Notes: generated from the sequence alone by a model not told the origin. A stretch of 64,000 nucleotides of DNA from Nemertoderma westbladi (GCA_032718475.1 JAUCBJ010005606.1:1-64000); one strand, 5' to 3'. Shown: positions 8,426-64,000, counted from the first letter of the stretch. Translations and numbers: made by a program.

Positions 8426-11400
8426 ATGGTAAAATATACCTTCTTATATAGTATTCTAATGTGTTATTGGGTTTCTCTTCCTTATTGTTATAGTACTACG
8501 AATAATTTCAATGTAGTAAAATCAATAAACTCCAAAAACTTATCACATCTCACACCAGTCGACAAAACTAATTGTATTAATTGTAGTTGCCCCCCCTCAA
8601 TGGTAAATGACAAATGTATATTTAACTCCAAAGATATAAATGATGAAAAGGCTATTATTACATGCAAAACCAAAAACCAAGTCTCCAAATGTACCTACAA
8701 ATCTCAAAGTTTATCTCATATATACCACCCTCCTGATGAGACTGTGTATCTCATAAAAAAGGTTGACTACTGGAAGGATGAAATAGATCCAATGATAACA
8801 TGCACTCCAAGTAAGTCAAATGAACAATGTGAACCCCACAATATTAGGCTTGAAATTGAATATCCTGCTGAGGATGTCGAGATCTATGTTGGAGAAAATG
8901 ATTTACCACAAGATTTAAGAGTCAAGCCAGGAGTAGATGTTCAGTTGCGCTGTAGATACATTGATGGTCATCCTTCAACGAAATGCCACCAATGGTATAA
9001 AAATGAAGAAATAATAAAAGATGAAGATTCAAAGGAACTTAATTTTAAAAATATTTCAAAAAAAGATGCCGGGAATTATGAATGTGAGGCATTAACAACA
9101 TATTCGAATGGAGATACCGATTCTACAGAGTCAGAAATTGTTAAAATTATAGTTGAATATTGTGATAATATAATCTTAGACCTTGGGAAAACATCAGAAT
9201 CACCCAACTACTCAAATCTAACTACATATACCAATTATAATGTTACAATTATAGTTGGTGAGCTTGTCGAGTTTGAGTGGAAATATAATTCAACAACAGT
9301 GTCGACAGATATATATTTCTCATGGTCAGGGACAGGGACACCAGATATCCATCAGGATCACAAAATAAAATTCATTGCCAGCAAGGACTACAAGGGTAAT
9401 TTGTTAACAGTAGCTAAATGTCTGTTTCAGTGTGAAGGATGTCAGCAAGAGATAAATTACAGAGCTAACATAAGCATTGACGTCGTATATTGTATAGATG
9501 CAAAACTCATTATTACTTATAATGAGAATCCAGTCTCAATCCCAAATGATGGCAACGTAATTGTTATAAGAGATAGTGAGGTTGTGTTGCAACTGGTGGT
9601 TGATGCTAATATAGAACTTGTTTACAGCTGGAAGGGGCCTGGTATAATAATCTCAAATGTGTCTCAACAAGCTTTTATTGCAACAACCAATAGAAACGGC
9701 CAATTCAATGCCTCAATTTCATGTTTATATGACTCATATTTAAATTATACAAACGATTATTCTTTCAGTTTCAACTTGAAAATTGGAATTCCCCCTGAGC
9801 TAGACAATCCAGAACAAGTTGAGGAAGTTGATAAACATGAGAATGTTACAATGAAATGTGAAGCCTGGAGCAATCCGCCACCCAGAGGTGACTATGGAGT
9901 TGTAGAGTGGCGATTTCAAAATCCAAACAATGACCCAATTAAGCCAGACAACAAGACGAAATTTATCACCATACAGTCTGTAGATTTGCCAAATGATGGG
10001 CAATGGCATACTGAAACCTCATTAAAGATTGTGAATGCTGATGTACAAGCTGATGGAAAATATTATTGCGATTTTACTAATGGTGTTGGGGTAAAGGGAA
10101 GTGGTGTAGTCGTATTACTTATCAGAAGAGAACCAGAACTAATTGATGTGAAATCAATAGAAGTTGAATGGCTCAATGCAACACAAATGAAAATATCTTG
10201 GCAAGAAAGCGATAATGGTGGTTATACACAGTATTATCAGATTGAGTTATATGAATTTCCATTGAATCCTGTACTGAAAGAAGAACCAACTAATGAAACT
10301 TCCCAATATCTCATTCAAAAGTTAAACCTTAGTGAGGGCAATAGTGAATTTGTTCAAAGTGGCGTCAGTGGAAATTATGAATATCAGCTATTCTATCAAT
10401 CATGTAATAGGCTGGGGTGTACTGTTAAAGAACATGCATATATCAAATACAACTATACTCCCAATAAATCGTCACAAGGTCTAAGTGAAGGTACGAAAAT
10501 TACCATTGCTGTTGTTATATCTGTAACAATTATTATTAGTATAGCAATTGCTGTGTACTATATGATATTTCGAATAACAAGAAAACCAACAAAGAGTGAA
10601 GAACCTCCTGTAAACCCTTCACAAGGTAAAACCGTAAATGATGTTTATAGTGATTACATAGAATATGGATCAGCAAATTATTCAAATAATAGGAAATCTC
10701 TAACTGAATACAAACCTAAAACAAACCGTGAATCATTACGCTCAAAAGACTCCACAAAAGAAGCCGCAGATATATATGCAGAATATGCAGTGTCTGGTGG
10801 TTCAATGGAGGAAGTTAAGAAAGAGCTGAAAAGTGCAAAAAACGATTTAGTTCTTAAAAATACAAATAATGCTCCACGTGTATCGAATGTTCCTCCAAGA
10901 AATGTTACCTTTGGTGTTAAGGACCATTCACGCTTCTCCACTGCAGTCCCAGATGCTCATGACAACCAAGTCACAGTAGATAATGAAGACTATGTGGAAC
11001 TTGGGAGTGAAACCTACTACACTACAGACACTATTAATGTGACTAAACCAATGGAACAACCAACACCAACAACACAAACAACAAAACCGAAGGGTTACTT
11101 GAAGAGGTTACGGGCACTAGCTAAGAGTTTCTCCAAGAATGCTATTAATTCACCCAAGAATGATAACCCAGTTGACCATGAATACTTTGTCTATGATTGT
11201 CAACACAAAATCAATTCCCAAGGGAGGAAAGGAACATCTATGACTACTGATAATCCTGCATTTTTACCAGATCCCGAAGATAACTCAAACTCACTAAACT
11301 ATATTCCAACAACCTCAGGTGAACGATTGAATACCAATAGATGGAGTTCAAATACAACAGACAATGACCAGGAACCTGCAGAATATTTTGTAATTAAACG

Positions 11401-11869
11401 AGAAAATTCGGTAGAATGTCTGGAAGTTGAATATGGAACTTCAACGTCTTTCCCAAATTCTAATATAAAACAGATGCAGAGTTTTAAAGGCACAATCGGA
11501 AATGTGATGCCTAAATCTAATTTAAGGAATGTCAAAGAAATTCAATCAAAAGATGCCGGCTATGTAGACCACGAGGCTAATTCTGGAATATATTCTTCAG
11601 TTATAAAACAAGTAAAAAAAGAACATGATACACCAATTAATATTCCTGGAGTTGTTAGATCAGAAGATGTAGATAAATACCACCAAAATGATGATGATAC
11701 TGCAGTATATACAACCGTTGTAAAACCGCTAGGGAAAACAGAAGATAAACCAAAAAATATTCCTGGTCTTATAGTTCAACCAAATGAAGAGCTTGATGGA
11801 TCTGATACAGAAAAACCGGATATTCCAGAATATAGTCCGGCACTTTTTAACATTCTTTTAACATTCTAA
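8426..11869 (+). CDS. Intronless IgSF type I transmembrane receptor, paralogue A (signal peptide, ~5 Ig-like domains, FN3, TM, Tyr-rich tail; Sidestep/nephrin-like architecture)
   Basis: 1147-aa ORF with a hydrophobic N-terminus. Ig motifs VQLRC...WYKN...DAGNYEC and VTMKCEAWSNPPP...EW...DGKYYCDFTNGVG; FN3 motif ISWQESDNGGYTQYYQIELY; TM ITIAVVISVTIIISIAIAVYYMIF (nt 10499-10570) followed by RITRK; ~430-aa tail with many Tyr motifs. Confidence 0.88.
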   Translation: MVKYTFLYSILMCYWVSLPYCYSTTNNFNVVKSINSKNLSHLTPVDKTNCINCSCPPSMVNDKCIFNSKDINDEKAIITCKTKNQVSKCTYKSQSLSHIYHPPDETVYLIKKVDYWKDEIDPMITCTPSKSNEQCEPHNIRLEIEYPAEDVEIYVGENDLPQDLRVKPGVDVQLRCRYIDGHPSTKCHQWYKNEEIIKDEDSKELNFKNISKKDAGNYECEALTTYSNGDTDSTESEIVKIIVEYCDNIILDLGKTSESPNYSNLTTYTNYNVTIIVGELVEFEWKYNSTTVSTDIYFSWSGTGTPDIHQDHKIKFIASKDYKGNLLTVAKCLFQCEGCQQEINYRANISIDVVYCIDAKLIITYNENPVSIPNDGNVIVIRDSEVVLQLVVDANIELVYSWKGPGIIISNVSQQAFIATTNRNGQFNASISCLYDSYLNYTNDYSFSFNLKIGIPPELDNPEQVEEVDKHENVTMKCEAWSNPPPRGDYGVVEWRFQNPNNDPIKPDNKTKFITIQSVDLPNDGQWHTETSLKIVNADVQADGKYYCDFTNGVGVKGSGVVVLLIRREPELIDVKSIEVEWLNATQMKISWQESDNGGYTQYYQIELYEFPLNPVLKEEPTNETSQYLIQKLNLSEGNSEFVQSGVSGNYEYQLFYQSCNRLGCTVKEHAYIKYNYTPNKSSQGLSEGTKITIAVVISVTIIISIAIAVYYMIFRITRKPTKSEEPPVNPSQGKTVNDVYSDYIEYGSANYSNNRKSLTEYKPKTNRESLRSKDSTKEAADIYAEYAVSGGSMEEVKKELKSAKNDLVLKNTNNAPRVSNVPPRNVTFGVKDHSRFSTAVPDAHDNQVTVDNEDYVELGSETYYTTDTINVTKPMEQPTPTTQTTKPKGYLKRLRALAKSFSKNAINSPKNDNPVDHEYFVYDCQHKINSQGRKGTSMTTDNPAFLPDPEDNSNSLNYIPTTSGERLNTNRWSSNTTDNDQEPAEYFVIKRENSVECLEVEYGTSTSFPNSNIKQMQSFKGTIGNVMPKSNLRNVKEIQSKDAGYVDHEANSGIYSSVIKQVKKEHDTPINIPGVVRSEDVDKYHQNDDDTAVYTTVVKPLGKTEDKPKNIPGLIVQPNEELDGSDTEKPDIPEYSPALFNILLTF

Positions 11870-23538: not shown

Positions 23539-26500
23539 ATGTATACCTGCATATATATCATTGCCATTTATTACTTAGTTTTGCTTCCCGAGAGTTACAG
23601 TTATTTCACTGTGAATAATTTCAATATATTAGGTACAACAAACTCCAAAAATATATCATACCCTAATCCAGTTGATAAATCAGTATGTTTTCAATGCAGC
23701 TGTTCCTCTTTGACGGGGACAACATGCAAATTAAAATCCGAAGACATAAATTCTGGAAGGGCTTTTGTCACCTGCAAAAATCCATATTCTGGCCTTTCCA
23801 AATGGTCATATAAGGGTCAGTCTTTAACTCCTATAACGTTTGTCCAACCTGATACAACGCATTTCTTTATTAATAATGTTAACTACTGGAAGGATGAGAT
23901 TGCCCCGACCCTAGAGTGTAGTGGAAATGGCTTTGCTAATAGTTGTTTGTTCAAATGTTCCATTGATCTTCAAATTCAATATCCAGCTGAACGGGTCGAG
24001 ATTTATTATGGGATCTTACCTTTAAATGATTTAAGGGTCAAAGAAGGAGACGATGTTGATTTGCGTTGTGAGTATAAAGATGGTAATCCTCCAACCCAAT
24101 ACCATAAATGGTATAAAGATGAAGAAATGATAGAACATAAAGATTCGAAGTTCCTTAATTTGAAAAAAATATCAAAGCATGAGGCAGGGCAGTATAAATG
24201 TGAAGCCTTAACGAGATATTGGGATGGAGTGATTGAATCTACATCTTCAAAACTTGGTAAAATTACAGTTGAATATTGTGACAACATGATCTTGCACCTT
24301 GGGATGACTTGGGAATCACCACAACCAAACCAAATTTTAAATTACGATGTCACAATTATTGTTAATGAAATGGTCAAATTTGAGTGGAAATTTGATTCAA
24401 CAACAAACATGTACTTTTTATGGACACAGGGTACCAGTATACAAGAGACTGGTAGCGGAATAAAGTTCATTGCAAGGAAAGACAGTCAAGGGAGTTTGTT
24501 AGCTGAAGCTGTATGTAGCTTTCAGTGCCAAACATGTGAAGTGGTGAGATACAAAGCAAACATAACAATTGACGTTGTATATTGTATAGATGCAAAACTC
24601 ATTATTACTTATAATGGGATTCCAGCCTCAACCCTAAATGATGGCAATGTTCTTGTTATAAGAGATAGTGAGGTTGTGTTGCAAATGGAAGTTGATGCTA
24701 ATATTGAACTTTTTTACAGCTGGAAGGGGCCTGGTATAATAAACTCAAATATACCTCAACAAGTTTTTATTGCAACAACCAATAGTAACGGCCAATTCAA
24801 TGCCTCTGTGTCATGTTTATATGACAAATCTTTAGAATATGCAAAAGATTACTCTTTCAATTTCAACTTGACAATTGGAATTCCTCCTGAGCTAGACAAT
24901 CCAGAACAAGTTGAGGAAGTTGATAAACATGAAAATGTTACAATGAAATGTGAAGCCTGGAGCAATCCGCCACCAAGAGGTGACTATGGAGTTGTAGAGT
25001 GGCGATTTCAAAATCCAAACAATGACCCAATTAGGCCAGACAACAAGACGAAATTGATCACCATAGATTCTAAAGATTTGACAAATAATGGAAAAATTAT
25101 AAAATGGTATACTATAACATCGTTAACTATTGTGAACGCTGTGGTACAAAATGGCGGAGAATATTATTGCGATTTTATTAATGGTGTTGGGGTAAAGGGA
25201 AGTGGTGTAATTGAATTGATCATCAGAAGAGAACCGGAAAGAATTGATGTGAAATCAATAGAAGTTGAATGGCTCAATGCAACACAAATGAAAATATCTT
25301 GGCAAGAAAGCGATAATGGTGGTTATACACAGTATTATCAGATTGAGTTATATGAATTTCCATTGAATCCTATACTGAAAGAAGAACCAACTAATGAAAC
25401 ATCTCTAAATCTCTTACAAAAGTTAAACCTTAGTGAGGGCAATAGTGAATTTGTTCAAAGTGGCGTCAGTGAAAATTATGAATATCAGCTATACTATCAA
25501 TCATGTAATAGGCTGGGGTGCACTGTCAAAGAACATGAATATATCAAATATAACTATACCTCTACCAAATTAACCGAATCAACACAAGGTCTCAGTGAAA
25601 GAACAACAATTACCATTGCTGTTGTTATATCTGTAACAATTATTATTAGCATAGCAATTGCTTTATACTATATTATATTTCGAATAACAAGAAAACCAAA
25701 GAAGTGTGAAGAACCTCTTGTAAATACTTCACAAGGAAAAACAGAAAATGATGTTTGCATTGAATATATAGAATATGGATCAGCCAATTATGCAAATAAT
25801 AGGAAATCTCTAACTGAATACAAAACTAAAACAAACCGGGAATCATTACGCTCAAATGACTCAACAAAAGATGCCGCAGATATATATGCAGAATATGCGG
25901 TGTCTGGTAGTTCAATGGAGGAACTTAAGAAAGAGCTGAAAAGTGCAAAAAACGATTTAGTTCTTAAAAATACAAAGAATGATCAATGTGTATCGAATGT
26001 TCCTCCAAGAAATGTTACCTTTGGTGTTAAGGACCATTCACGCTTCTCCACTGCAGTCCCAGATGCTCATGACAACCAAGTCACAGTAGATAATGACGAC
26101 TATGTGGAACTTGGGAGTGAAACCTACTACACTACAGACACTATTAATGTGACTAAACCAACTGAACAACCAACACCAACAACACAAACAACAAAACAGA
26201 AGGGTTACTTGAAGAGGTTACGGGCACTAGCTAAGAGTTTCTCCAAGAATGCTATTAATTCACCCAAGAATGATAACCCAGTTGACCATGAATACTTTGT
26301 CTATGATTGTCAACACAAAATCAATTCCCAAGGGAGGAAAGGGACATCTATGACTACTGATAATCCTGCATTTTTACCAGATCCCGAAGATAACTCACTC
26401 AGCTATATTCCAACAACCTCAAGTGAACGATTGAATACCAATAGATGGAGTTCAAATACAACAGACAATGACCAGGAACCTGCAGAATATTTTGTAATTG

Positions 26501-26979
26501 AACGACACAACTCCATGGAATGTCTGGAAGTTGAATATGGAAGTTCAACGTCTTTCCCAAATACTAAAATAAAACAAATGCAGAGTTTTAAAGGCACAAT
26601 CGGAAATGTGATGCCTAAATCTAATTTAAGGAATGTCAAAGAAATTAAATCAAAAGATGCCGGCTATGTAGACCAAGAGGCTAATTCTGGAATATATTCT
26701 TCAGTTATAAAACAAGTAAAAAAAGAAAATGATAAACCAATTCATATTCCTGGAGTTGTTAGATCAGAAGATGTAGATAAATACCACCAAAATGATGATG
26801 ATACTGCAGTATATACAACCGTTGTAAAACCGCTAGGGAAAACAGAAGATAAACCAAAAAATATTCCTGGTCTTATAGTTCAACCAAATGAAGAGCTTGA
26901 TGGATCTGATACAGAAAAACCGGATATTCCAGAATATAGTCCGGCACTTTTTAACATTGTTGATTATAAAGAGTGGTAG
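23539..26979 (+). CDS. Intronless IgSF type I transmembrane receptor, paralogue B
   Basis: 1146-aa ORF with the same architecture as A. High identity to A from DVVYCIDAK onward, strongly divergent N-terminal third; ends IVDYKEW. Confidence 0.88.
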   Translation: MYTCIYIIAIYYLVLLPESYSYFTVNNFNILGTTNSKNISYPNPVDKSVCFQCSCSSLTGTTCKLKSEDINSGRAFVTCKNPYSGLSKWSYKGQSLTPITFVQPDTTHFFINNVNYWKDEIAPTLECSGNGFANSCLFKCSIDLQIQYPAERVEIYYGILPLNDLRVKEGDDVDLRCEYKDGNPPTQYHKWYKDEEMIEHKDSKFLNLKKISKHEAGQYKCEALTRYWDGVIESTSSKLGKITVEYCDNMILHLGMTWESPQPNQILNYDVTIIVNEMVKFEWKFDSTTNMYFLWTQGTSIQETGSGIKFIARKDSQGSLLAEAVCSFQCQTCEVVRYKANITIDVVYCIDAKLIITYNGIPASTLNDGNVLVIRDSEVVLQMEVDANIELFYSWKGPGIINSNIPQQVFIATTNSNGQFNASVSCLYDKSLEYAKDYSFNFNLTIGIPPELDNPEQVEEVDKHENVTMKCEAWSNPPPRGDYGVVEWRFQNPNNDPIRPDNKTKLITIDSKDLTNNGKIIKWYTITSLTIVNAVVQNGGEYYCDFINGVGVKGSGVIELIIRREPERIDVKSIEVEWLNATQMKISWQESDNGGYTQYYQIELYEFPLNPILKEEPTNETSLNLLQKLNLSEGNSEFVQSGVSENYEYQLYYQSCNRLGCTVKEHEYIKYNYTSTKLTESTQGLSERTTITIAVVISVTIIISIAIALYYIIFRITRKPKKCEEPLVNTSQGKTENDVCIEYIEYGSANYANNRKSLTEYKTKTNRESLRSNDSTKDAADIYAEYAVSGSSMEELKKELKSAKNDLVLKNTKNDQCVSNVPPRNVTFGVKDHSRFSTAVPDAHDNQVTVDNDDYVELGSETYYTTDTINVTKPTEQPTPTTQTTKQKGYLKRLRALAKSFSKNAINSPKNDNPVDHEYFVYDCQHKINSQGRKGTSMTTDNPAFLPDPEDNSLSYIPTTSSERLNTNRWSSNTTDNDQEPAEYFVIERHNSMECLEVEYGSSTSFPNTKIKQMQSFKGTIGNVMPKSNLRNVKEIKSKDAGYVDQEANSGIYSSVIKQVKKENDKPIHIPGVVRSEDVDKYHQNDDDTAVYTTVVKPLGKTEDKPKNIPGLIVQPNEELDGSDTEKPDIPEYSPALFNIVDYKEW

Positions 26980-35936: not shown

Positions 35937-37473
<1,537 letters not shown>

Positions 37474-41572: not shown

Positions 41573-41962
41573 CTACAAGGAGATGTACATGTTTGCATAA
41601 TCACTTCAGTGGGCCGACATTCCGGCCATCTCATTAAAAATTATCATTTTAGCCTTATATATCGTTATCCAATGAATGAAGTTTTTATAAAATTATCCAT
41701 AATAAAATTCGAATTTATTTTTCGAATAAGCTCTTGATTTAGATTTGTATAGAACATATTCCTAGTTCCTACCTCATTACAACAGATACCAGTACTCTAA
41801 TTTACAACTGTTGAATGAAATGTAGTCAGTTATTACTATTTTATTTCTGAGGTTCAGATTTCCTGTACATTCTGTCGATTTGTGTTCTATTAAAAAAAAT
41901 ATTATTCTGTATATTTTACAATAATGGTTCAAATAATGCAATCTTGATTGTTATATGATATA

Positions 41963-44839
41963 ATGCTACGATACTGCATAAATACTGTTTTCCTATATAT
42001 TTTAATCTTAATTGCTCATACCAGTTATTCTTTAGCTTTGGAAACTATTGTTCAGAGTAGAGATAGCAAAAGTGAACTCAGTGAAGAATACAAGAAGGAC
42101 TCTGTTGACTGCAGTTGTTCATCTAATCAGGACCCATGTCATCTAAGATCCCGAGATATACTTAAAGGGGAAGAATATGTGAGCTGCACAAATTCAAATG
42201 GAGAACGTAATGAATGGTTCTATGGAGGTCAAAGGTTAACACCTGATGAATTTATCAAACCGGATGAGACAAGATTTTATATAACTAGTGTCGATTATTG
42301 GAAATATAACACATCGCCATTAGTATGCAAAACAAAGAAGAAGAGACAGAAAAAATGCAAAATATCACTCATTATAGAATATCCTGCAGAAAAGGTTCAA
42401 GTATATCATGGTATATTGCCGTTGACAGATCTAAGAGTTAAGATCGGTGATGATGTTGTGTTACGATGCAAATATACAGATGGTTATCCTAAGACACAAA
42501 CCCATCTATGGTATAAAGATGATGCTATTTTACCAGGTGATTTCTCCAATACGCTTTCCATTACAGATATTTTGAAAACAGATGCAGGACGATACAAATG
42601 TGCTGCTAAAACAACATATAGCTTTGGGTCTGATTACGACATAATTCAGTCAAACAGTGGAAAAATTACAGTTGAATATTGTGATAATGTCAGACTATTT
42701 TTTAGCTATAAATTTGAAAAACCACAAGCCGATAGCATCTCAAAATTCAAAGTAACAATTGTAGTTGGGGAATTTGCGAAGTTTATGTGGAGATTCAAGT
42801 CAACAACTAATATGTTTTTCATATGGAATGGAGAAGCAACACAAGAGTTCGGACAATCACTTGAATTTCCAGCTACAAAGGAGAGTAAAGGTGTCATAAA
42901 TACTGAGGCAGAATGCAGTTTCCAGTGTGAAGATTGCCGTTCTGTAAGTTACAGAGCACAAATAGATATTGATACAATATACTGCATCGATGCAAAGCTA
43001 CGAATTACCACCAATGGAGAAGCACCCCTAAAGCTAAATGATGGAAGCTTCCTTGTTATGAAAGACAGTGACGTTGTGATGCAACTAGAGGTTGATGCTA
43101 ATATAGACCACCAATTTGCCTGGAATGGACCTGGAATTCGTTCATTGGTTGAATCCTTTAATAAATCCAAACAACATTTTCAAGCAACACCAAATAGAAA
43201 TGGCAAATTCGGTGCAACAGTTTCTTGTTTTTACAATTTCGAATTCGAATATGAAAACCACCATAATTTTGATTTTAACTTAACAGTTGGAGTGTCTCCA
43301 GATTTGGAAATAGAAAAACAAGACATGTATGTTGATAAATCAGGTAATGTAACCATGATGTGTAAAGCCGTGAGCAATCCACCACCTACCGGAGTTTATG
43401 GGGCTGTGCACTGGCGATATAATGATCCAAATAGTTCTCCAATTCAAGCAGATAACCGAAAGACATTCCTTTCAATAGACTCGCAGGATATATCAAGTAA
43501 TGGCATTATTACACATTGGAATACTGAAACATTTTTAAAAATAACAAATATTGAAGTAAAAGATGCTGGAATATATTATTGTGATTTCATTAATGGCGTT
43601 GGAATACTTGGAAGTGGTGTAATTTCCCTGCATGTCAGATCTGAACCAGAAAGTATTGATGTAAGTTCATTGGAAGTCAAGTATATCAATGCATCAACCA
43701 TGGAAATAACATGGAATGAAACCTTTAATGGTGGTTATGCACAATATTATCTGATAGAGTTATATAGTCTACAACAAGATATAAATAATGATACATCTCC
43801 AAATTTAATGCAGTCGTTAAATCTAACAAACAGAAGATTTGTTCAAGGAGGAATTAGTGATAGGCATTCCTATGAAATAATTTGTCAATCATGCAACCAA
43901 CTAGGTTGCAGTAGAAAGAACAATGCCTTTATTCAGTACGATTATAATGCAGAGAAATTAACTGGTGGTTCATCAGCTGGAACGACAATTGTCATTGCAG
44001 TCGTGGTGTCAGTAACTATAATTGTAATCATGGTTGTTGCTTTGTATTATTTTGTAATCCGAGTTGCATCTAGACGTTCTGATAATTTGAAACAAGTTGA
44101 AAATCCGACAAAGCAAGGAAACTCACAGGCAGTTGTGGGTGATGATGAGTATATAGTGTATGATGTAAACAAAAGAGCAAGCAACAGGAAATCTCTCACT
44201 GAGTATGCGCTCCGAAACAAACATAATTCTGATGAATCTTTACATCCAAAAGAGATAAACATGAACAAAGATGCGGCTGATTTGTATGCAGAGTATGCAG
44301 TTTCTGGAGGATCAATGGAAAATCTAAAGAGAGAATTGGAAACAATCAATAATAAATCACCTCATAGAAATACATATGTGATTGATAACTCTCGACCAGC
44401 AAGAATCACAGAAAATAATAGTAACATCTTTGGTGTCAAGTTACCAGCATTAACAGATCACCATAATCAAACTACAAGTGAAGATATATACAGCAACGGA
44501 GATTATTTGGAACTAGAAAGTGAAACTTACTACGATGTGAATTCCTTCAAAGAGAAGACACAGCCATCGTCAGTAATGAAGCAAGGTGGATTCTTTAAAT
44601 CAGTGAAGGGTCTTAGGAAGAAGTTATTGGTTGTTAATAAGAATGGCCCGGATGCCAATGTACCAAGTACCAGTGATCACGAATATTTCGTCTATGACAA
44701 TAAATCTCAGTTATGCACCCAGGGAGTAGCACCAGTAAAATCAATAATCGAAGCTGATGATGACCAACCTGATATAAGTAATGAACTATATTTTGTGTTG
44801 GAGCAAGATGCAGTTGACGAATATTCTGTTTACGGATAA
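41963..44839 (+). CDS. Intronless IgSF type I transmembrane receptor, paralogue C (shorter tail)
   Basis: ATG at 41963 (the ORF track starts at an upstream TTG, 41948); 958 aa; signal peptide, same Cys and Ig pattern (DAGRYKC, DAGIYYCDFINGVG), FN3 (ITWNETFNGGYAQYYLIELY), TM TIVIAVVVSVTIIVIMVVALYYFVI. Confidence 0.88.
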   Translation: MLRYCINTVFLYILILIAHTSYSLALETIVQSRDSKSELSEEYKKDSVDCSCSSNQDPCHLRSRDILKGEEYVSCTNSNGERNEWFYGGQRLTPDEFIKPDETRFYITSVDYWKYNTSPLVCKTKKKRQKKCKISLIIEYPAEKVQVYHGILPLTDLRVKIGDDVVLRCKYTDGYPKTQTHLWYKDDAILPGDFSNTLSITDILKTDAGRYKCAAKTTYSFGSDYDIIQSNSGKITVEYCDNVRLFFSYKFEKPQADSISKFKVTIVVGEFAKFMWRFKSTTNMFFIWNGEATQEFGQSLEFPATKESKGVINTEAECSFQCEDCRSVSYRAQIDIDTIYCIDAKLRITTNGEAPLKLNDGSFLVMKDSDVVMQLEVDANIDHQFAWNGPGIRSLVESFNKSKQHFQATPNRNGKFGATVSCFYNFEFEYENHHNFDFNLTVGVSPDLEIEKQDMYVDKSGNVTMMCKAVSNPPPTGVYGAVHWRYNDPNSSPIQADNRKTFLSIDSQDISSNGIITHWNTETFLKITNIEVKDAGIYYCDFINGVGILGSGVISLHVRSEPESIDVSSLEVKYINASTMEITWNETFNGGYAQYYLIELYSLQQDINNDTSPNLMQSLNLTNRRFVQGGISDRHSYEIICQSCNQLGCSRKNNAFIQYDYNAEKLTGGSSAGTTIVIAVVVSVTIIVIMVVALYYFVIRVASRRSDNLKQVENPTKQGNSQAVVGDDEYIVYDVNKRASNRKSLTEYALRNKHNSDESLHPKEINMNKDAADLYAEYAVSGGSMENLKRELETINNKSPHRNTYVIDNSRPARITENNSNIFGVKLPALTDHHNQTTSEDIYSNGDYLELESETYYDVNSFKEKTQPSSVMKQGGFFKSVKGLRKKLLVVNKNGPDANVPSTSDHEYFVYDNKSQLCTQGVAPVKSIIEADDDQPDISNELYFVLEQDAVDEYSVYG

Positions 44840-50782: not shown

Positions 50783-51759
50783 TTGCTTATCCATTGTGCA
50801 TAGATTGTACAGGAATGAATCTGTAAGCAGATTCAATTCCGCTGCATTACCCTCATAAAATGGGATAGTGGCATTTTCAGCAATATATTGGAGATACGAG
50901 ATTAGCAGTAACTAATCTCGTACCACAACCAACATCGGGGACAGTACAAACCCCAAAGCTACACACAAAGGGAGGTTAGAGGTCAAACCACCTCGGAAGG
51001 GGAGACAGCTAGCAGGGGCCAGCGACAGGGGGGAAACACTCCCAGAGAGTGAAAAGCGTGAAGTAGGTTATTAGCCAATAAGGGCGAAGGAGAGCATCCA
51101 CTAGGTAAGAGGCCATGGTAATGTAGAAGTGATCACACATATTATCTATGTATATTGGTATATCATTCAGTTACTCAGATTGTCAGTTTTAGTGCAGACC
51201 GGTAACATTCTTCACCGTCACCAATATCAGTACAGCATACCGGTATCCATCAAATCTGTACTTCCGCTTTTATTGTGCTATCATTATCAACATTTAGAAT
51301 ATCAAGAGACTACATCAAACTCTCATTATTTTACTACATTGGCCTCGGCCTAGCTGCTAGCGCTATCCCTAAAGCAAAACGGTGACGCGTAGTATATTTA
51401 TCCGGTCGGGATCACTTGATCCCGTCACAGTGAAGAATTCCCAACTGAACTGAACTGAACTGTGACTGCCAGACGCCAGAGACAAAGAAAAGATGAGCAC
51501 ATGAGAACCCCGATTATCAGAGGGAGAGAGGACACCGCCGCGGACCTCGGACGACACCAACCAAACGATCCGCGAGGCCGCGACGAGACGGTATCGACCT
51601 GCGACACCGGATTCGCCGACGAGGGACGATCCGGTACCCCAAGCGGAGGGCGGCCGTCAATCACGAGAGAGGGACGAGTCGACGCACGACGGCGGTAGGA
51701 GTACCGAAGTCACCAGCCAGCCACAGGCCGAGGGCGACGGACGGCCCACCGGAACGGCG

Positions 51760-54700: not shown

Positions 54701-55790
54701 CGAACCCATTGGAAGCACAGGCAATGGGAATGGCAACACTTATCGATGCGCTCAAGACCAGGATCGAGCTACCACCAGTAGAGCCATTTAAATTCGACGG
54801 AAGCAGACCGGAAGAATACCTGCAATTCCGACGCATGTACAGCAACGAGATATTAACTAAGAACCTGACGCAGGCGGAGTGCCTAAAATATCTACAGGTA
54901 TACACAGGAGGCCCAGCGTACGACATCGTGAGGCAGTATCAGGGCATCGAGGGTGGCTTCACGACTGCATGGCGGGCCCTAGACAGGGAATACGGACACC
55001 CTGCCAAGATCATCCGGCAGACCCTGAGGGGAATAACATCGGGTGGCCTACAGGATAACCCTGTTAGCATAAAGACCTTCGCGAACAAGGTCGAGAAGGC
55101 GTTAATCGTGCTGAAAACGCTAGACGCGCCATACGAACTCAACGCATCTAATAATATCACCACGATAGCGCAGGCACTGCCGATCTGGCTGCGCAATAAA
55201 TGGAGAAAGATCGCCTTCTCCACCCGGGAGAAGAAAGGTGCGGAACCGGGCCTAGAGGAAATGTCGAACTTCCTCAACTACGAAGCAGAGTTAATCACGG
55301 ACCCAGTCTACAGCGAGGATAGTCTGGGGAAGGCGCCGAGGGCCGAATACAACAGGCCGAAACCAGAGCACAATGCGGCAAATGCGTTGCCAAAATTAAG
55401 ACAATCCCTACCATACGCGGCGTCACAGGGGACTGCAAGTCCACAGATAGCTGGGAGTGGGGCCAGACTGTGGCACGAACAGGGACAAAATAACAACACA
55501 AACAAATATAATCCCAACACACCCAGTAGGCCAAACCCAAATAACCAAAACACTAAACCGGTAGACGTGAACCTACGCGCAATACGTATAGGGCTATATA
55601 GGGAATGTTACAACCCAGAATAGAAATGTCAATTGCATAAAGACAGAACCCATAAGACCATGGACTGTAAGCATTGGCTGGCATTACCCGAACAAGATCG
55701 GAAAGCCTATGCGGATAAGAATGGAATTTGTCACCGATGTGTGGTAGGAGGACACAAGGTTGAAGAGTGTAAGGAGACACCAGTAAGATT
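51760..55790 (+). pseudogene. BEL/Pao gag region (coiled-coil E/R repeats, Asn-rich tract, DUF1759-like capsid, Zn knuckles), broken by stops and frameshifts
   Basis: IELPPVEPFKFDGSRPEEYLQF, LKYLQVYTGGPA, ALDREYG, LPIWLRNKW; CHRCVVGGHKVEEC knuckle; frame changes at poly-G runs. Confidence 0.8.
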
Positions 55791-58332
55791 CGGTCAAGGC
55801 AAAGGTCAAACAATGGCGACAAGCACCATAGGGGCGAAGAAAAGGGGAACGGTGCTACTGGGGGTGGTACCGGTGAGGGTAATAGGAGAGGGCGGTCGAT
55901 CAGTTACTACCTTGATGCTGGTTGACAGTGGAGCAGCCTTCACATTGGTGGAGAATTGGGTGGCTGAAGAGATAGGGTTACAGACGAGGCCAAGCAGAAT
56001 GGCGGTAACTACCATCTCCAGCAAAGATGAGGTCCTGGAGATGAGGACGGGAAGGTGCGAGATATCAGCGATAGCACCGGGATGTGACTATGGGGCGACC
56101 ATCGACCCCATCTAGGTAATAGAATCAATCAACATAAACACCAGCCGACCAACTAACATCGAGGTCGACCAGTATAGATTCCTGGACAACATCGATTTCT
56201 CGATACCAGAGGTGGACGTCAGGAAGGTATCCATCATAGTGGGAATGGACTGCCCGACGGCTCACGAAAGAGTACAGACGATCTTCGGGGAAGACAGACA
56301 GCGCGATCCGATGGCAATTCTCACACCATTCGGATGGACGCTGAGCGGCCCAATCAAAACCAAAATTCCATTTAGGATGTCGGAGACATCGGGGTGCATG
56401 TTCGCGGGGACTATGAGGGAGATGGAAGATGAAGGAGCGGAGGAACAGCTGAAGAGACTGTTGAGGCAGGCTTTTGAAGGACTGAAGGAGACCGGGGTCG
56501 GAACCTCGGTAGAGGATAAACAGGCAGTTGCAGAGTGTGAAGGAGTCGATGAGATGCGACGAGGGACGGTACACCATAGGCATGGTGTGGAAACAGCCGA
56601 AGTTGCCGTTGCCTGACAACAAGAGGATGGTACTCACGAGGCTTCGCATACTGAAGCAAACGCTTAAACGGAGCCCCGAGAAGGATGAGTACATCCATAG
56701 GACGATAAAGAAGTACGCCGAGAAAGGATGGGCCGTGGAGTTGCCGGTTGACGAACCAATCACGGACAGGACCTACTACCTGCCACTTCATGTGGCTTTA
56801 GACCCAAAGAAGGGTAACTGCGGATGGTGGTTGACGCATCGGCTAAAACCAATGGCAAGAGCCTGAACGACTATCTGCTCAAGGGCCCCAATATCTACAA
56901 CTCGGGGATAGAGGTCTTGTTGAGATTTAGGAATGGGAGGCACACCTTCACGTGCGACATCGAAGGCATGTTCAACCAGGTCCGTATGACGGAGGAGGAC
57001 AGCGACAGCCAGCGCTTCCTATGGTACAACGGCGACGAGGAATCATCGACAATACCGATGTACAAGATGGTGGTGCAGAACATGGGGGCCAAGTCGTCCT
57101 CATTCACGACGACTGTGGCTGTAAGAGATACGGTAGAGGGGAAAGAGGGGAAGTATAGCGCCAAAGCGATCGATATGATTCGACACAGCTTCTATGTAGA
57201 CGACGGGATGGAGTCTGGAAACACGGTTAAAGAATTACTGGACACAGGGCGCGAGGTTCGCGACATCCTGAAAGGATCCGGATTTAACCTGACCAAGTTT
57301 CAGTCCAGCTCAGAGGAGTTTATGAAAGCCATAGAGGACAGGCGGCCAGAGTCGACCATGGACAACCCCACAACAGCCAAGGGACAGGACATGGCGGACA
57401 AGAGAGTAGAGTCTCAGCAGAAGGCGCTGGGGATCGTGTGGAACCGGGAGACGGACGAGTTCAAGTACCAACAGAGCCAGGAGGGCGCGGAGATCCACAC
57501 AAAGAGGGGCTATGTATCGTACATAGCAAGGATATACGATCCCTTAGGCCTGGCATCCCCATTGTTAGTCACGGGGAAGCAGATACTTAAGAAAGTATAT
57601 AAGTTAAAGGACGAGTGGGATACGGAGGTCCCGGAAGAGATATGCAAGCAATGGAGCAAGTGGACAGGGAGTCAAGAACAGATGGGGACGTACAGCATGC
57701 CACGCGTGTATTTCCCGAACGGGGACATGACGGATCTGGACCTACACATGTTCTCCGATGCATCATTGGAAGCATACGGAGCGGCACTCTACCTAGTACA
57801 GCGAAAGGGGGCTCATAAGCCCAGACTTGCATTCAGTAAAGCAAAGTCGATGCCGCCAGATTCAGCATCAGTCCCAAAATTCGAGTTGACAGCTGCAAGA
57901 TTAGGAGTAAGGGCCACAGCCTACTTGATGGACACTATTCCCAACATAGTGGAAACACACTACTGGATGGACTCCATGGTAGTGCTCGGGTGGCTGCACA
58001 ACGAGAAGACGAGATACCCTATATTCGTCGTGAATAGGGTGGACGAAATATGGGCGACGACAGACTTGGAAAGGTGGCACTACTGCCCAACGGACGAGAA
58101 CCCAGCAGACTTGTTATCGAGGGGTGTGGCACGCCACACTTTCTCAAAGAAGGAAGTGCTATGGCAGCATGGGCCACACTTCCTGAATGATAGATCGGCC
58201 TGGCCACCAATGAAGAAGGTGGACCCGGGCTCAGAGGAAGTAGCACCAGGGGAAGAGGGAGAAGATTCAGAAGGAGAAGAGATATATAGTCAGATGGTGA
58301 GGGAAGTCAGGGAGGTACAACCGAAATTATAA
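55791..58332 (+). pseudogene. BEL/Pao protease, reverse transcriptase and RNase H
   Basis: LVDSGAAFT (aspartic protease), LTPFGWTLSGP, YYLPLH, VVDASAKTNGKSLNDYLLKGPN, CDIEGMFNQV, SFYVDDG, IYDPLGLASP, MFSDASLEAYGA, WMDSMVVLGW, ENPADLLSRG. Confidence 0.9.
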
Positions 58333-58398
58333 GAGCCATGTGACAACCCGACGGATAGGATACTCAGCTACAGCTCCAGTTGGTACAAGACCAAGAAG

Positions 58399-59694
58399 TT
58401 GGTAGCGTACTGGAGGGCCTACGGGGATTTCCTCAAGGGAGTTGGCAAGGACGCCAAGAGGAAACCAAATATCTATCGAGTTAGCAAACAACAACATCTT
58501 CGTCGGGACAGCGAGCTCATCACGCTGTCACCACAACTCAACGATGACGGGATTCTAGTGATGAATTCCAGAGTGCTGAATAACAACAGCCTTATCATTC
58601 CACCAAAACCCATTATCATCCCCAACAGATCGCTGATAGTCCACCAGATCAATTGGGACTCCCACAAGTCGATAGGCACCAACCAGACCCTCACAGAGAT
58701 ACGGAGGACCTTCTGGATCGCGCAGCTAAGAAAGAAGGTGAAGGCGGTAGTGGGGCAGTGCCAGACCTGCCGACGGACAAGGAAGGAGAGGGCCGTACAG
58801 GAGATGGCGCCATTACCGGCCAGTAGAGTGAGACAGCACGACCCGCCATTCACGCACTGCGGCGTAGACATGTACGGGCTGATTAAGATCAAGGTGATGC
58901 GACACACGGAGAAACGATACGGCATCATCTTCGTATGTAACAACACGAGGGCGGTAGGAATAGAACTCGCCCAAGACGCCACGGCATCGGCATTCATCAA
59001 TGCCTTAGAGAGATTTAGAGACCGCAAAGGTGGAACGATCGCAGTGATCTATTCCGACAATGGAACCAACTATGTGGGAGCGGAGAACGAGTTGGCGGAG
59101 GCCTTGGACATCCTAGAAGGAGAAGAGGTCAGGGCAGCCATGAGGATACAACAGGTGAAGTGGGAAAGGAGGACGCCGTATGCGCCACATACGTTAGGAT
59201 GCGTCGAGAGGCTTGTGGGTAGTTCCAAGCATCTGATGACGAAGTTGATGAACACCCACATGGTGACAGAGGACATTCTAAGAACGGTGCTAGCTAAGTG
59301 TGAGGGAATCATTAATAGCAGACCGCTATACCCGGAGAATGACGACCCGGAATCACTAGACGTGCTAACACCGAGCCAATTTCTGATGGAAAGGCCAGCG
59401 ACCATCGACATGCGGGGTGTAGACCCAGATGACATACACTCCCGACAGAGTTGGAAAGTCGCCAAGGCGATAAGCGCCGAGTATTGGAGGAGGTGGGTCG
59501 AGGAATACCTACCCACATTACACAGGAGGAGCAAGTGGAGAAACACCACTCGAGAGTTAAAGAAAGGTGACTTAGTGATCGTCACTGACGACACAATCAT
59601 CAACAATCAGTGGAGGCTAGCGAGAGTAGTAGACACTTACCCTGACGAGGACGGAAGAGTCCGATCGGTGGAAGTGCGGATAGGGGTAAGATAG
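58399..59694 (+). CDS. BEL/Pao integrase (HHCC remnant, DDE core, DUF5641-like C-terminus)
   Basis: CQTCRR, MAPLPASRV, PFTHCGVDMYG, IYSDNGTNYVGA, ERLVG, INSRPL, LTPSQFL, YWRRWVEEYLPTL, DGRVRSVEV. Confidence 0.88.
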   Translation: MVAYWRAYGDFLKGVGKDAKRKPNIYRVSKQQHLRRDSELITLSPQLNDDGILVMNSRVLNNNSLIIPPKPIIIPNRSLIVHQINWDSHKSIGTNQTLTEIRRTFWIAQLRKKVKAVVGQCQTCRRTRKERAVQEMAPLPASRVRQHDPPFTHCGVDMYGLIKIKVMRHTEKRYGIIFVCNNTRAVGIELAQDATASAFINALERFRDRKGGTIAVIYSDNGTNYVGAENELAEALDILEGEEVRAAMRIQQVKWERRTPYAPHTLGCVERLVGSSKHLMTKLMNTHMVTEDILRTVLAKCEGIINSRPLYPENDDPESLDVLTPSQFLMERPATIDMRGVDPDDIHSRQSWKVAKAISAEYWRRWVEEYLPTLHRRSKWRNTTRELKKGDLVIVTDDTIINNQWRLARVVDTYPDEDGRVRSVEVRIGVR

Positions 59695-59919
59695 GAGCTA
59701 AAGATAGAAAGACCTACAGGAGGACTGTAGGGAAGTGCTGCCTATTATAAGGGGCAGCATAGAGTTTAGTCGTCCAAGTGTTGGACTGAGGGGGGTGGGA
59801 TTGAGGGCGAGACGCCCTTCCCACACAAAATATAAAAAAATAATAAAAATAATAAATTGATGATTGTGGTGCATATAATGCTAATGCTAAATAATTGTGG
59901 TGCATATGTGTGTTGCGTC

Positions 59920-60890
59920 TCAAATTCGCAAAACTCGAATCTAAGAAACCAATAAGAATGGACAGATGCATATCAACGCTATGTCCCATAATTAAAGACG
60001 GCAAGAAATACATAGGAACACTATTAAATAACGCACTAGAAGGGTTAGGGGTTATATATCCCATTATTATTCCAAAACAGTCACAAATAGTTGTTAAAAT
60101 CATAGCGGATTGCCATACGAAGGTTCAGCATCGCGTAACAAAAGAAACTATGGCAAGAGATAAGACTAAATTATTGGATACATTCGTTAAGAACAGATAA
60201 TGACACCATTGCCAGAAGAACGTCTTACGGCGTATTTTACATTTTTCGCATTTTACAAATAGCGGAGTAAATCTATTTTGACATATAAGAGTGAAGATAG
60301 GACGCAAATACGACAAGGTGGGGTGCGATAATGGTATGTTACGCCAGCAGGGTGGTCGCTCTTTAAATAGTGAGGAATGTAAAGTGTGGAGGCATTCATT
60401 AACACATTACGATGTTTCATCAGCAACCACGGAGGGATGAAAACTATAAATTCTGACAACGGGGGAAACTTCATAGGTTCGAATGAGGAACTGAGAACAC
60501 TATACCAATACGCACAGACGCAAGAAGTTAATGCAACATCTATGAGAAACTGGCTATTGAAATTCCATATGACATAGGCACCACATTCCTCAGGGGTGTG
60601 GTAGCAGTTAATTGGTACAACTAAGAAGCAGATGTTAGCGGTTACACGGAACAGATGTCTTAATGAAGATACACTAGCAACAATATTTGCCGAGACAGCA
60701 GCCATTATGCACCCAAAGTGATGACCCGGAGTCGTATGAGGTACTTACACCAAGCCACCTGCTACTACAGAGGCCAGTACAGGTACTGACGCTGGAGTTA
60801 ATTGATGGCAGAGATTCCTATTCCAAGCGGACGTTGAAGGTAGGTAAAGAAATTTAAAGATTATTCTGGTAGAGATGGGTAGAGGATAGC
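59920..60890 (+). pseudogene. Second, older and AT-richer BEL/Pao integrase remnant
   Basis: YPIIIPKQSQIV, PLPEERL, AFINTLRCFISNHGG..INSDNGGNFIGS, APHSSGVW, DPESYEVLTPSHLLL, with many stops and frameshifts. Confidence 0.75.
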
Positions 60891-61647
60891 AGGAGCAGGA
60901 ATAAACTGGAATAGAAAATATAACTGATAACTTTCATCCACATCAAGATGCCGTGTGTCCTTCCTTCATGTCATTTAAGCAGTTCCGTCACTCTATGTTA
61001 CGGCAGCTTATTATATATAACACGTCCAAACCATTTCGGCACCTTTGGACTGCGACTACAGAGACGATATAACGAGTTTGTATTTAATCAGTAGAGGTTT
61101 AATTAAACTAATCCCATGCCATATAGAGAGAACAAACCAAATATACAGTAGTCATAGTTTCATAGTCCATATTAGTTGAGAAAATTCCAAGATAATCATA
61201 AGTTATGTAAGTTATCACATTTTGACTTTATTATTGTTATATTAATTTGAGTATTAAATCTTAATATCATAAACTGTAGAACCATTCTGACTTCCAGACT
61301 TGTCCAAGTCTACACAGGGCTATACATATCATCCAACTCAAAGAACATTCGCAATGGTCGTAAAAAAGTCACATATCCATAATGTTTGTATAAAGTAAAC
61401 CGTTGTATAAAGGCAACAAATATCTATTCCACTCTACCCACGTAGTTAAATTCCATTTCCTTTTCCAAATAAGCTCTAATATTAATATCTGTACGCAACA
61501 TATTCCTCCCTCGTTACTGCGGACACTAGTACACTATTAATTAATTAATGTTGAACTAAATGTAGAAAATGTAGTCAATTTCTATTATATTTGTTAGATT
61601 GAGGCAATATTCTTCAAATAATGTAATATTGTTTGTTTTAAGATAGA

Positions 61648-64000
61648 ATGCTGCGATACTCCATAAATACTGTTTTCCTATATATTTTAATTTTAATTAC
61701 TCATACCAGTTATTGTTTAGCAGCTGAAACTATTGCTCAGATAAGTGATGAAAGTGAACTCGTAGAAGAATACAAGGGGCCAAAGGAGTCTGTTGACTGC
61801 AGTTGTTCATCTAATCAGGATCCATGTCATCTAAGATCCCGAGATATACTTAAAGGGGAAGAATATGTGAGCTGCACAAATTCAAATGGAGAACGTAATG
61901 AATGGTACTACAGAGATCAAAGGTTAACACCTGATGAATTTATCCAACCGGACGAGACACGATATCATATAACAAGTGTTGATTATTGGAAATATAACAC
62001 ATCGCCATTAGAGTGCAAAACAAAGAAGAAAAAACACGATGACAGATGCGAAATAACTCTCATTATAGAATATCCTGCAGAAAAGGTTCAAGTATATCAT
62101 GGTATATTGCCGTTGACTGATTTAAGAGTTAAGGCCGGTGATGATGTTGTGTTACGATGCAAATATACAGATGGTTATCCTAAGACACAAACCCATCTAT
62201 GGTATAAAGATGATGCTATTTTACCAGGTGATTTCTCCAATACGCTTTCCATTACAGATATATTGAAAACAGATGCTGGACGATACAAATGTGCTGCTAA
62301 AACAACATATAGCTTTGGGTCTGATTACGAGATAATTCAGTCAAACAGTGGAAAAATTACAGTTGAATATTGTGATAATGTAATACTATATTTTAGTTAT
62401 AAATGGTACGAACCACAAGCTGATAGCCTCTCGAAATACAAAGTAACAATTGTAGTTGGGGAATTTGCAAAGTTTATGTGGAGATTCAAGTCATCAACTA
62501 ATATGTTTTTCGTATGGAACGGAAAAGCAACACAAGAGTTCGGACAATCACTTGAATTTACAGCTACAAAGGAGAGTAAAGGGATTGTAAATACTGAGGC
62601 AGAATGCAGTTTCCAGTGTGAAGATTGCCGTTCTGTAAGTTACAGAGCACAAATAGATATTGATACAATATACTGCATCGATGCAAAGCTGCGAATTACC
62701 ACCAATGGGGAAGCACCCCTAAAGCTAAATGATGGAAGCTTCCTTGTTATGAAAGACAGTGACGTTGTGATGCAACTAGAGGTTGATGCTAATATAGACC
62801 ACCAATTTGCCTGGAATGGACCTGGAATTCGTTCATTGGTTGAATCCTTTAATAAATCCAAACAACATTTTCAAGCAACACCAAATAGAAATGGCAAATT
62901 CGGTGCAACAGTTTCTTGTTTTTACAATTTAGAATTCGAATATGAAAACCACCATAATTTTGATTTTAACTTAACAGTTGGAGTGTCTCCAGATTTGGAA
63001 ATAGAAAAACAAGACATGTATGTTGATAAATCAGGTAATGTAACCATGATGTGTAAAGCCGTAAGCAATCCACCACCTACAGGAGTTTACGGGGCTGTGC
63101 ACTGGCGATATAATGATCCAAATAGTTATCCAATTCAAGCAGATAACCAAAAGACATTCCTTTCAATAGACTCGGAGGATATATCAAGTAATGGCATTAT
63201 TACACATTGGAATACTGAAACATTTTTAAAAATAACAAATATTGAAGTAAAAGATGCTGGAATATATTATTGTGATTTCATTAATGGCGTTGGAATACTT
63301 GGAAGTGGTGTAATTTCCCTTCATGTCAGATCTGAACCAGAAAGTATTGATGTAAGTTCATTGGAAGTCAAGTATATCGATGCATCAACCATGGAAATAA
63401 CATGGAATGAAAGCTTTAATGGTGGGTATGCACAGTATTATCTGATAGAGTTATATAGTCTACAACAAGATATAACTAACGATACATCTCCAAATTTAAT
63501 ACAGTCGTTAAATCTAACAAACAGAAGATTTGTTCAAGGAGGTATTAGTGATCAGCATTCCTATGAAATAATTTGTCAATCATGCAACCAACTAGGTTGC
63601 AGTAGAAAGAACAATGCCTTTATTCAGTACGATTATAATGCAGAGAAATTAACTGGTGGTTCATCAGCTGGAACGACAATTGTCATTGCAGTCGTGGTGT
63701 CAGTAACTATAATTGTAATCATGGTTATTGCTTTGTATTATTTTGTAGTTCGAGTAACAGCAAGACGATCTGATAAATTTAAATCATTTGAAAATCCCCC
63801 AAAGCAAGGTAACTCACAGGCGGTTGTGGGTGATGATGATTATATGGTGTATGATGTAAACAAAAGAGCAAGCAACAGGAAATCTCTCACTGAGTATGCT
63901 CTCAGAAAAAAACATAATCGTGAATCTTCACATCCAAAAGAGATAGACATGAACAAAGATGCGGCTGATTTGTATGCAGAGTATGCAGTTTCTGGAGGAT
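61648..64000 (+). CDS. Intronless IgSF type I transmembrane receptor, paralogue D (runs off the window; not in the ORF track)
   Basis: ATG at 61648 (MLRYSINTVFLYILILITHTSYCLAA...), colinear and highly similar to C through the Ig domains, FN3, TM and into the tail (NRKSLTEYAL, DAADLYAEYAVSGG); no stop before the window end. Confidence 0.88.
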   Translation, partial: MLRYSINTVFLYILILITHTSYCLAAETIAQISDESELVEEYKGPKESVDCSCSSNQDPCHLRSRDILKGEEYVSCTNSNGERNEWYYRDQRLTPDEFIQPDETRYHITSVDYWKYNTSPLECKTKKKKHDDRCEITLIIEYPAEKVQVYHGILPLTDLRVKAGDDVVLRCKYTDGYPKTQTHLWYKDDAILPGDFSNTLSITDILKTDAGRYKCAAKTTYSFGSDYEIIQSNSGKITVEYCDNVILYFSYKWYEPQADSLSKYKVTIVVGEFAKFMWRFKSSTNMFFVWNGKATQEFGQSLEFTATKESKGIVNTEAECSFQCEDCRSVSYRAQIDIDTIYCIDAKLRITTNGEAPLKLNDGSFLVMKDSDVVMQLEVDANIDHQFAWNGPGIRSLVESFNKSKQHFQATPNRNGKFGATVSCFYNLEFEYENHHNFDFNLTVGVSPDLEIEKQDMYVDKSGNVTMMCKAVSNPPPTGVYGAVHWRYNDPNSYPIQADNQKTFLSIDSEDISSNGIITHWNTETFLKITNIEVKDAGIYYCDFINGVGILGSGVISLHVRSEPESIDVSSLEVKYIDASTMEITWNESFNGGYAQYYLIELYSLQQDITNDTSPNLIQSLNLTNRRFVQGGISDQHSYEIICQSCNQLGCSRKNNAFIQYDYNAEKLTGGSSAGTTIVIAVVVSVTIIVIMVIALYYFVVRVTARRSDKFKSFENPPKQGNSQAVVGDDDYMVYDVNKRASNRKSLTEYALRKKHNRESSHPKEIDMNKDAADLYAEYAVSGG

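Follow-up and report, generated by a model that had tools for sequence, protein, structure and literature searches.

Genes C and D of this locus are close tandem paralogues of one IgSF receptor family that are near-identical over long stretches and differ in patches, which raises the question of what made, or kept, the patches different. A preliminary description of gene D read them as amino-acid-changing clusters between recent duplicates and attributed them to positive selection on putative ligand-binding surfaces. Our analysis points to a different history, in which C and D are older tandem duplicates, made into a mosaic by gene conversion, whose remaining peaks of divergence selection may have kept; we place this reading a little above even.

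Four receptor genes in a repeat-rich window

The window, that is the whole 64,000-nt stretch of Nemertoderma westbladi DNA that was analysed, carries four same-strand, uninterrupted open reading frames (ORFs) of one family, genes A, B, C and D. All lie on the plus strand. Gene A (8426..11869) encodes a paralogue of 1147 residues with 45% identity to D, and gene B (23539..26979) one of 1146 residues; A and B are near-identical in the distal tail and very divergent in domains 1 to 3 (D1–D3). Gene C (41963..44839; 958 residues) is the closest paralogue of D, with 94.3% nucleotide identity over 41928–44312, and gene D (61648..64000) has an uninterrupted ORF that runs past the window end. A tblastn search within the 64-kb window found no family copy beyond these four. 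The stretch is contained in four of six listed public sequencing runs (X1–X4, from three studies; X1 is possibly the window's own source). In X1, X2 and X3, a contig end before 62346 joins at the Ig2/D3 boundary motif and then runs on into sequence without a counterpart in the window (0 matches when 3 mismatches are allowed); it probably belongs to a fifth paralogue at another place in the genome.

The DNA around the genes is repeat-rich and of animal type, with LINE and LTR remnants and tandem repeats. An intact-looking LINE reverse transcriptase ORF of 717 residues (169–2322, minus strand) matches RVT_1 and mostly animal clusters, and a remnant of a related LINE element lies at 7407–7937. 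The tandem repeats include a 42-copy array of a 19-mer (29875–30672), a 98-copy run of the triplet ACG (37106–37398) and arrays of 97/68-base units (40582–41572) that end about 390 bases upstream of C. An LTR retrotransposon at about 51700–60900, presumably BEL/Pao-like, has a gag-like region (53548–55623) and broken pol pieces (55633–59694); this element and a second decayed integrase-like piece are found some 700 bases upstream of D.

The gene D product reads as a type I membrane protein with a likely signal peptide, five Ig-fold domains, a probable FN3 domain, a TM segment and a tyrosine-bearing tail. The likely signal peptide, a hydrophobic N-terminus, and the likely TM segment, a 24-residue hydrophobic run (678–701; 63679..63750, plus), were both read from the sequence. 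D1 (residues 48–141; 61789..62070, plus) has an Ig fold that keeps the B- and F-strand cysteines (C76 and C123) and the C-strand tryptophan (W86), and Ig2 follows at 62071..62367 (plus). Pfam places Ig_3, I-set and V-set above cut-off, with the best stretches in Ig2 and D5; the FN3 matches are weak and all under cut-off (fn3 E=0.016 in A; fn3_SORL1 E=0.03–0.07 in B and C). The usable AF2 model, which covers residues 46–563 of D with FN3 outside it, is based on the four paralogues aligned with 28 multi-Ig proteins. It predicts five beta-sandwich domains with a mean pLDDT of 80.8, under a bias towards Ig from the 28 unrelated Ig proteins; a single-sequence model (pLDDT 30) was unusable. Top Foldseek matches of the model are nearly all Ig-array proteins at 8–17% identity. 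The Ig fold of an IgSF type I receptor is supported by Pfam, the AF2 model and Foldseek alike.

D1 aligns with the second Ig domain of multi-Ig proteins, which we take to be C2-set-like. The D1–Ig2 region as a whole aligns with these proteins at ~20% identity, a level of fold and not of orthology, and the PDB sequence matches include CD22; by their appearance, we presume the aligned proteins to be CD22/Siglec-like. Word-index protein searches returned nothing at E ≤ 1e-3, either with C at near lengths (7996 candidates) or with the family alignment at shorter lengths (1921 candidates). A full HMMER search gave 1240 matches, the best 150 of which all peak over generic Ig parts. In the databases searched in these three ways, the family has no full-length relative. 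The protein searches likewise found no orthologue from another species that would date the C/D duplication, and a literature search for a comparable single-exon tandem IgSF family gave no match, although such a family may have been published.

The tails of A and B are ~430 residues long with 21 tyrosines each, and that of C has 260 residues and 15 tyrosines, C/D-type tails being ~170 residues shorter than A/B-type tails. The tyrosine-rich tails of A, B and C have acidic tyrosine motifs in common, such as DHEYFVY, and contain 3–4 single YxxL/I/V motifs. The ITAM, ITIM and ITSM consensus patterns gave 0 matches in the four tails, that of D being represented by the 84 residues inside the window. 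Altogether, the family probably consists of at least five IgSF receptors with five Ig domains, a probable FN3 domain, a TM segment and a tyrosine-rich tail. Judging by this architecture, A–D would serve in adhesion or recognition, with the tail tyrosines passing on the signal.

C and D differ in clusters within and beyond the ectodomain

Across 781 aligned codons, C and D show 62 amino-acid differences: 13 in D1, 7 in residues 245–264 of D3, 6 in the rest of D3, 10 in the signal peptide and stalk, 14 in the tail, 1 in the TM/linker region and 11 in Ig2, D4, D5 and FN3 together. The four C-versus-D peptide pairs quoted in the preliminary description are exact (for example, WFYGGQR/WYYRDQR and FIKPDETRFYI/FIQPDETRYHI), and the near-identity of Ig2 and D4 is real, with 2 differences in 99 aligned codons and 1 in 101, respectively. 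The mature-domain cysteines are indeed kept (19 of 19 in the ectodomain), and only signal-peptide cysteines differ. The statement that the differences lie mainly in D1 and the start of D3 holds for the folded ectodomain (20 of 37) but not for the whole gene (20 of 62).

The four patches all lie on the plus strand. Patch 1 (residues 86–92; 61903..61923) covers the C strand and the C–C′ turn, and patch 2 (98–108; 61939..61971) the D–E turn and the E strand on the opposite sheet, where Y106F probably faces inward, judging from the strand register of the model. Patch 3 (121–137; 62008..62058) spans the F strand, the FG loop with a one-codon indel and the G strand; what had been called a charge reversal here is a drop, from +8 in C to +2 in D, with local K/D and K/E swaps. 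Patch 4 (245–264; 62380..62439) comprises the first strand of D3 and the loop after it. Two further clusters, absent from the preliminary description, lie in the signal peptide and stalk (61691..61769, plus; 15 differences in 79 nt plus indels) and in the juxtamembrane tail (63744..63825, plus; 16 differences in 82 nt). In a two-state segmentation, both are as dense as the D1/D3 patches; this HMM split (fourfold sites 16/36 vs 8/232) is circular and serves for coordinates only. A low-divergence tract (62591..63542, plus), which runs from the end of D3 through D4 and D5 to most of FN3, holds 17 differences in 952 nt and may represent one or more conversion tracts.

Replacements are clustered beyond chance (permutation P=1e-4 for window variance), and a uniform-omega simulation matches the observed peak in 0.6–7.7% of 1000 runs, depending on window size. 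The clusters are therefore real, but they are not purely amino-acid-changing: the four patches contain 21 non-synonymous and 8 synonymous differences in 46 codons.

Silent divergence rises with the replacements, and the flanks are old

C/D dS is 0.26–0.31 in D1 residues 86–137, 0.34–0.41 in D3 residues 245–264 and 0.03–0.07 in Ig2, D4, D5 and FN3; Ig2, homogenised between two divergent domains, is at 0.05–0.06. Over 19 windows, silent and replacement divergence correlate with a Spearman coefficient of 0.78. Among codons for the same residue, silent differences occur in 21 of 211 within three codons of a replacement vs 17 of 488 elsewhere (P=8e-4), and each of four uniform-mutation simulations reached the observed co-location ratio in 0–3 of 1000 runs. 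With directly adjacent codons removed, the co-location gave P=0.016 for the whole gene and P=0.10 for the ectodomain only. A by-domain chi-square test of C/D silent heterogeneity gave P=0.15, and fourfold-site permutations gave P=0.26–0.72; this modest heterogeneity counts against a mosaic.

The 5′ flank of D (61310..61603, plus) is homologous to the flank of C at 41573–41857, with an alignment score of 121 vs a best of 54 in 200 shuffles. The two flanks are mismatched at 74 of 264 aligned positions (28%) with 51 further gap columns, giving a JC distance of 0.35, to be read as coming from an alignment that is, like the other flank alignments, AT-rich and gapped. Since this distance is close to the patch dS, the patches and the C/D duplication seem to be of similar age; the label of recent duplicates is not confirmed. 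Coding tracts have 2–4% mismatch vs 21–28% in the flanks, and next to such flanks the near-identical tracts look too young.

Part of the silent pattern would also be expected if the coding duplication were recent and relaxed constraint in D1, D3, the stalk and the tail were combined with clustered multi-nucleotide mutation, with no conversion. The silent excess peaks directly beside replacements (11/89) and falls off with distance, several C/D codons differ at two adjacent bases, and more replacements fall on C. This explanation leaves unaccounted for the strongly diverged flanks beside little-diverged coding tracts, as well as the whole-domain gradient between A and B and a lineage variant carried by both paralogues, which are described below. 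We consider it improbable as a full account; clustered mutation may nevertheless contribute to the C/D silent pattern.

Codon models do not support classic positive selection between C and D

Recent duplication followed by classic positive selection on ligand-binding patches, perhaps mainly in C, can draw on the clustering and on several further observations. The pooled patch dN of 0.22–0.23 looks high vs the gene-wide dS of 0.08–0.09. Polarised changes comprise 34 replacements on C vs 11 on D, with 12 vs 11 silent changes (Fisher P=0.06), and under a clock constraint omega comes to 0.51 on C and 0.06 on D (P=4e-4); the surplus of replacements and higher omega in C fit some adaptive or relaxed change. 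The D1 changes favour one face, as detailed below. Two of nine branch-site tests, both with D as foreground, were nominally significant (P=0.017 and 0.019, for D3 alone and D1+D3); they are one signal, due chiefly to codon 254, where two bases differ and omega sits at its upper bound.

The silent differences speak against this explanation. dS across the patches is 0.25–0.48, and a value of ~0.3 does not come from site-specific positive selection, which leaves local dS unraised. dN/dS in patches 1–4 is 0.72–0.83, 0.36–0.42, 0.49–0.69 and 0.98–1.19, and 0.61–0.75 when pooled; it thus lies below 1 in three of the four patches and in the pool, the outcome that had been named in advance as speaking against positive selection. 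None of the four patches has dN/dS significantly above 1, despite their post hoc choice. Pairwise dN/dS is 0.40–0.47 in D1, 0.46–0.54 in D3 and 0.44–0.52 overall. Site, branch and branch-site tests used four-taxon codon models (A–D), which have low power with four sequences. In these, M2a was no better than M1a in 6 of 6 domains (P=0.15–1.0; LRT 0.0 in D1 and D3), seven of the nine branch-site tests were non-significant, and omega on the C/D branches in D1+D3 was 0.33, below 1 (P=0.0012). Simulations with omega=1 in D1/D3 and dS of 0.085 matched the patch density in 18–64% of runs, and the flanks are old. By site or by branch, the C/D pair thus shows no significant omega above 1 beyond the nominal codon-254 signal, and classic positive selection is not supported; we rate it as improbable, by a hair more so than relaxed constraint with clustered mutation.

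An independent pair repeats the order of divergence

A/B dS is 0.9–1.2 in D1, 0.4–0.5 in Ig2, 0.8–1.0 in D3, 0.11–0.13 in D4 and 0.03–0.04 in the distal tail (heterogeneity P=2e-22), and the order, with D1 and D3 above Ig2 and Ig2 above D4, is the same in C/D and A/B. A block of the A/B 3′ flank has 21% mismatch. Silent and replacement divergence raised together, with tracts younger than the flanks, is a strong pattern in A/B and a moderate one in C/D.

The identity of A and B ends abruptly a few codons before the stop (11857–11870 and 26961–26979, respectively). After the break, A continues into unrelated sequence, possibly an insertion, and flank homology is back at 13277–13555 vs 27251–27556. 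An upstream match at 7467–7631 was not counted as flank homology, as it lies inside the LINE remnant. Where A and B differ, B has the residue of the C/D outgroup at 56 positions and A at 29 (P=0.005); A evolves faster than B, mirroring C vs D.

The co-location of silent and replacement changes, flanks far more diverged than the conserved tracts, and the repetition of the pattern in A/B all argue for a conversion mosaic. That coding tracts have been exchanged, by conversion or by unequal crossover, we regard as quite likely.

Public runs show stable patches and one variant on both paralogues

At codon 80 (61885..61887, plus), the variant K80 (N80K) is found on both C-type and D-type contigs of X3 and on neither type in X1 and X2. 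In X3, the base A at 61887 accounts for 77.3 of 77.3 depth, including contigs of both the C type and the D type with their first base at 61877, and in X4 it is linked to a C-type patch within 30 nt. Across X1–X4, all four combinations of N80 or K80 with C-type or D-type patch 1 occur, the two sites being 20 nt apart, which indicates exchange between paralogues or repeated mutation. This argument concerns one site and assembled contigs, not reads. In X2 and X3, patch-4 contigs of the C type match window C with 0 differences, and those of the D type differ from window D by 0 and 1. Across at most three samples, the patches thus look like differences fixed between the paralogues, not like hypervariable alleles.

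A contig of X4 (61672–61943) has an extra patch-1 replacement, Y88N, and then switches to sequence that matches the decayed integrase-like remnant at 60705; it is a disrupted copy or a library chimera. A contig of the same run that joins a D-type stalk to a C-type patch was dropped as a candidate conversion tract, as long-range linkage in these contigs is unreliable. The missing C-type stalk and tail contigs of X3 were dropped as well, C-type patch 3 also being lost from the contigs of X2 and X3. X1, though a possible source of the window, is without the C-type patch-4 letter at 62382. Because the assemblies drop real variants, the absence of a C-type contig is unusable as evidence.

Over 61400–62010, D-type contigs are deeper than C-type ones, ~2.5–3.5-fold in X1, 1.2–1.4-fold in X2 and ~2-fold in X3; contig depth is no copy number, but the excess could come from additional D-like copies or from variation in copy number. 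Another X4 contig, at 63651–64000, carries a D-type tail followed by a 3′ end unlike that of C; a deletion of 2 bases at 63945 would put this tail out of frame. The contig's start is, by appearance, presumably a cDNA template-switch adapter, hinting that a D-type gene is transcribed; X4 is not recorded as RNA.

Selection may keep the patches apart

The C/C′/F/G side is a common IgSF binding face. On the predicted model, 10 of the 13 C/D differences in D1 fall within the 31 of 94 residues that form the C/C′, F, FG-loop and G side, in three contiguous clusters that make up the enrichment. The notion of a variable binding surface survives to this extent; positive selection on it is not supported. 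Furthermore, 11 of the 13 differences occur at columns where A and B differ too (P=0.028). In Hydractinia Alr2, specificity residues are reported to lie on strands C/C′ (PMC8282982). On the model, selection may thus keep the D1 patches unconverted rather than speed their change.

The peaks could instead be neutral remnants of the mosaic, left where diverged stretches resist conversion and loops tolerate change. The signal peptide, the stalk and the juxtamembrane tail have diverged just as far; for D1+D3, omega along the C/D branches does not differ significantly from the background (P=0.11); and differences between A and B show no enrichment on the same D1 face (19/31 vs 34/61; P=0.39). Neutral remnants fit less well with the fact that each of two independent pairs has its peaks in D1 and D3 and a more homogenised Ig2, and with patches that do not change between X2 and X3 even though the two paralogues have a site 20 nt upstream in common. 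We hold this alternative to be unlikely, if well short of negligible.

In the mosaic with possibly selected peaks, which we prefer, tandem IgSF receptor duplicates would swap stretches of coding sequence, through gene conversion or unequal crossover, and this exchange would keep the membrane-proximal domains and the distal tail alike. The D1 and D3 patches would be old differences left unconverted, and selection would probably retain them, each receptor with its own putative binding face. Besides the evidence above, this reading draws on the four codon-80/patch-1 combinations, patches identical across samples, and the D1 face with its shared columns. Selection for distinct putative faces is favoured by the fact that D1 and D3 stand out in two independent pairs while the Ig2 between them is more homogenised; whether selection acts against conversion at D1/D3 we nevertheless put at an even chance. 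Several observations count against the mosaic: the signal/stalk and juxtamembrane clusters are as divergent as the putative binding patches, A/B lacks a face bias, the variable columns of C/D and A/B do not overlap in D3 (P=0.73), and the shared variant is a single site.

Patchy amino-acid divergence of close paralogues is thus not by itself positive selection, and it is the near-identical stretches that need explaining. If selection protects the peaks, ~20 residues would set binding specificity in this receptor family, and patch-swap binding tests would be cheap to design.

Comparison with known systems

Among mammalian IgSF families under concerted evolution, CEACAM (PMC7042247) and Siglec (PMC5701461) genes resemble A–D as paralogues with conversion tracts, probable ones in A–D, and in CEACAM32 selection is reported to hinder conversion over the Ig exons (PMC7042247). 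A–D differ in having no N-terminal V-set domain. Paired receptors such as Siglec-11/16 are reported to homogenise the ectodomain, whereas in A–D it is the distal Ig domains that differ, and homogenisation affects the distal tail and the parts near the membrane. Contactin, Robo, Sidekick, Dscam and NCAM are the top matches of D in fold and features but have only the repeated Ig fold in common with it, at 8–17% identity, with whole-chain TM of 0.16–0.32 and other architecture.

Like A–D with their probable FN3 domain and likely TM segment, the Hydractinia Alr genes are a clustered invertebrate IgSF family with unusual Ig domains, an FN3-like fold, a TM segment and tyrosine-bearing tails, and Alr12A/B, a pair near-identical except in domain 1, parallels C/D (10.1101/2022.03.04.482883). 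The Alr genes are reported to be multi-exon with exon shuffling, to have 2–3 Ig domains with a V-set domain 1 that lacks the Cys pin, to carry ITAM/ITIM in some tails and to show extreme allelic polymorphism. A–D, in contrast, have five Ig domains, of which D1 is of the Cys-Trp-Cys kind, tails that match neither ITAM nor ITIM and, in few samples, little allelic variation. With uninterrupted ORFs, a Cys-pinned D1, five Ig domains and 0 ITAM/ITIM in four tails, we rejected A–D as members of Alr.

A wider reading, which we offer as a long shot, is that the genes form an undescribed array of five or more Ig receptors without introns, in which conversion within one coding exon builds a variable/constant design. 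It would provide a code for cell recognition, whether of self/non-self or in cell pairing, with an origin independent of Alr, Dscam and protocadherins. The design itself, with common stalk-proximal domains and signalling tail and with selectively protected D1 and D3 faces, is part of that reading and just as doubtful.

The closest parallel in process is exon 5 of the human red/green opsin genes, where a divergence peak under conversion has been read as selection restricting conversion (Fawcett and Innan 2011, PMC3924837); RHD/RHCE and the clustered protocadherins are cited there as further cases of divergence peaks. Like C/D, the opsins described there are tandem paralogues that have diverged little along most of the gene, with peaks in places (PMC3924837). 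In the opsins, it is introns that are converted and function is mapped to two residues, whereas the putative C/D tracts lie within coding sequence, in uninterrupted ORFs. The process is thus a known one, and the family in which we describe it is a new instance.
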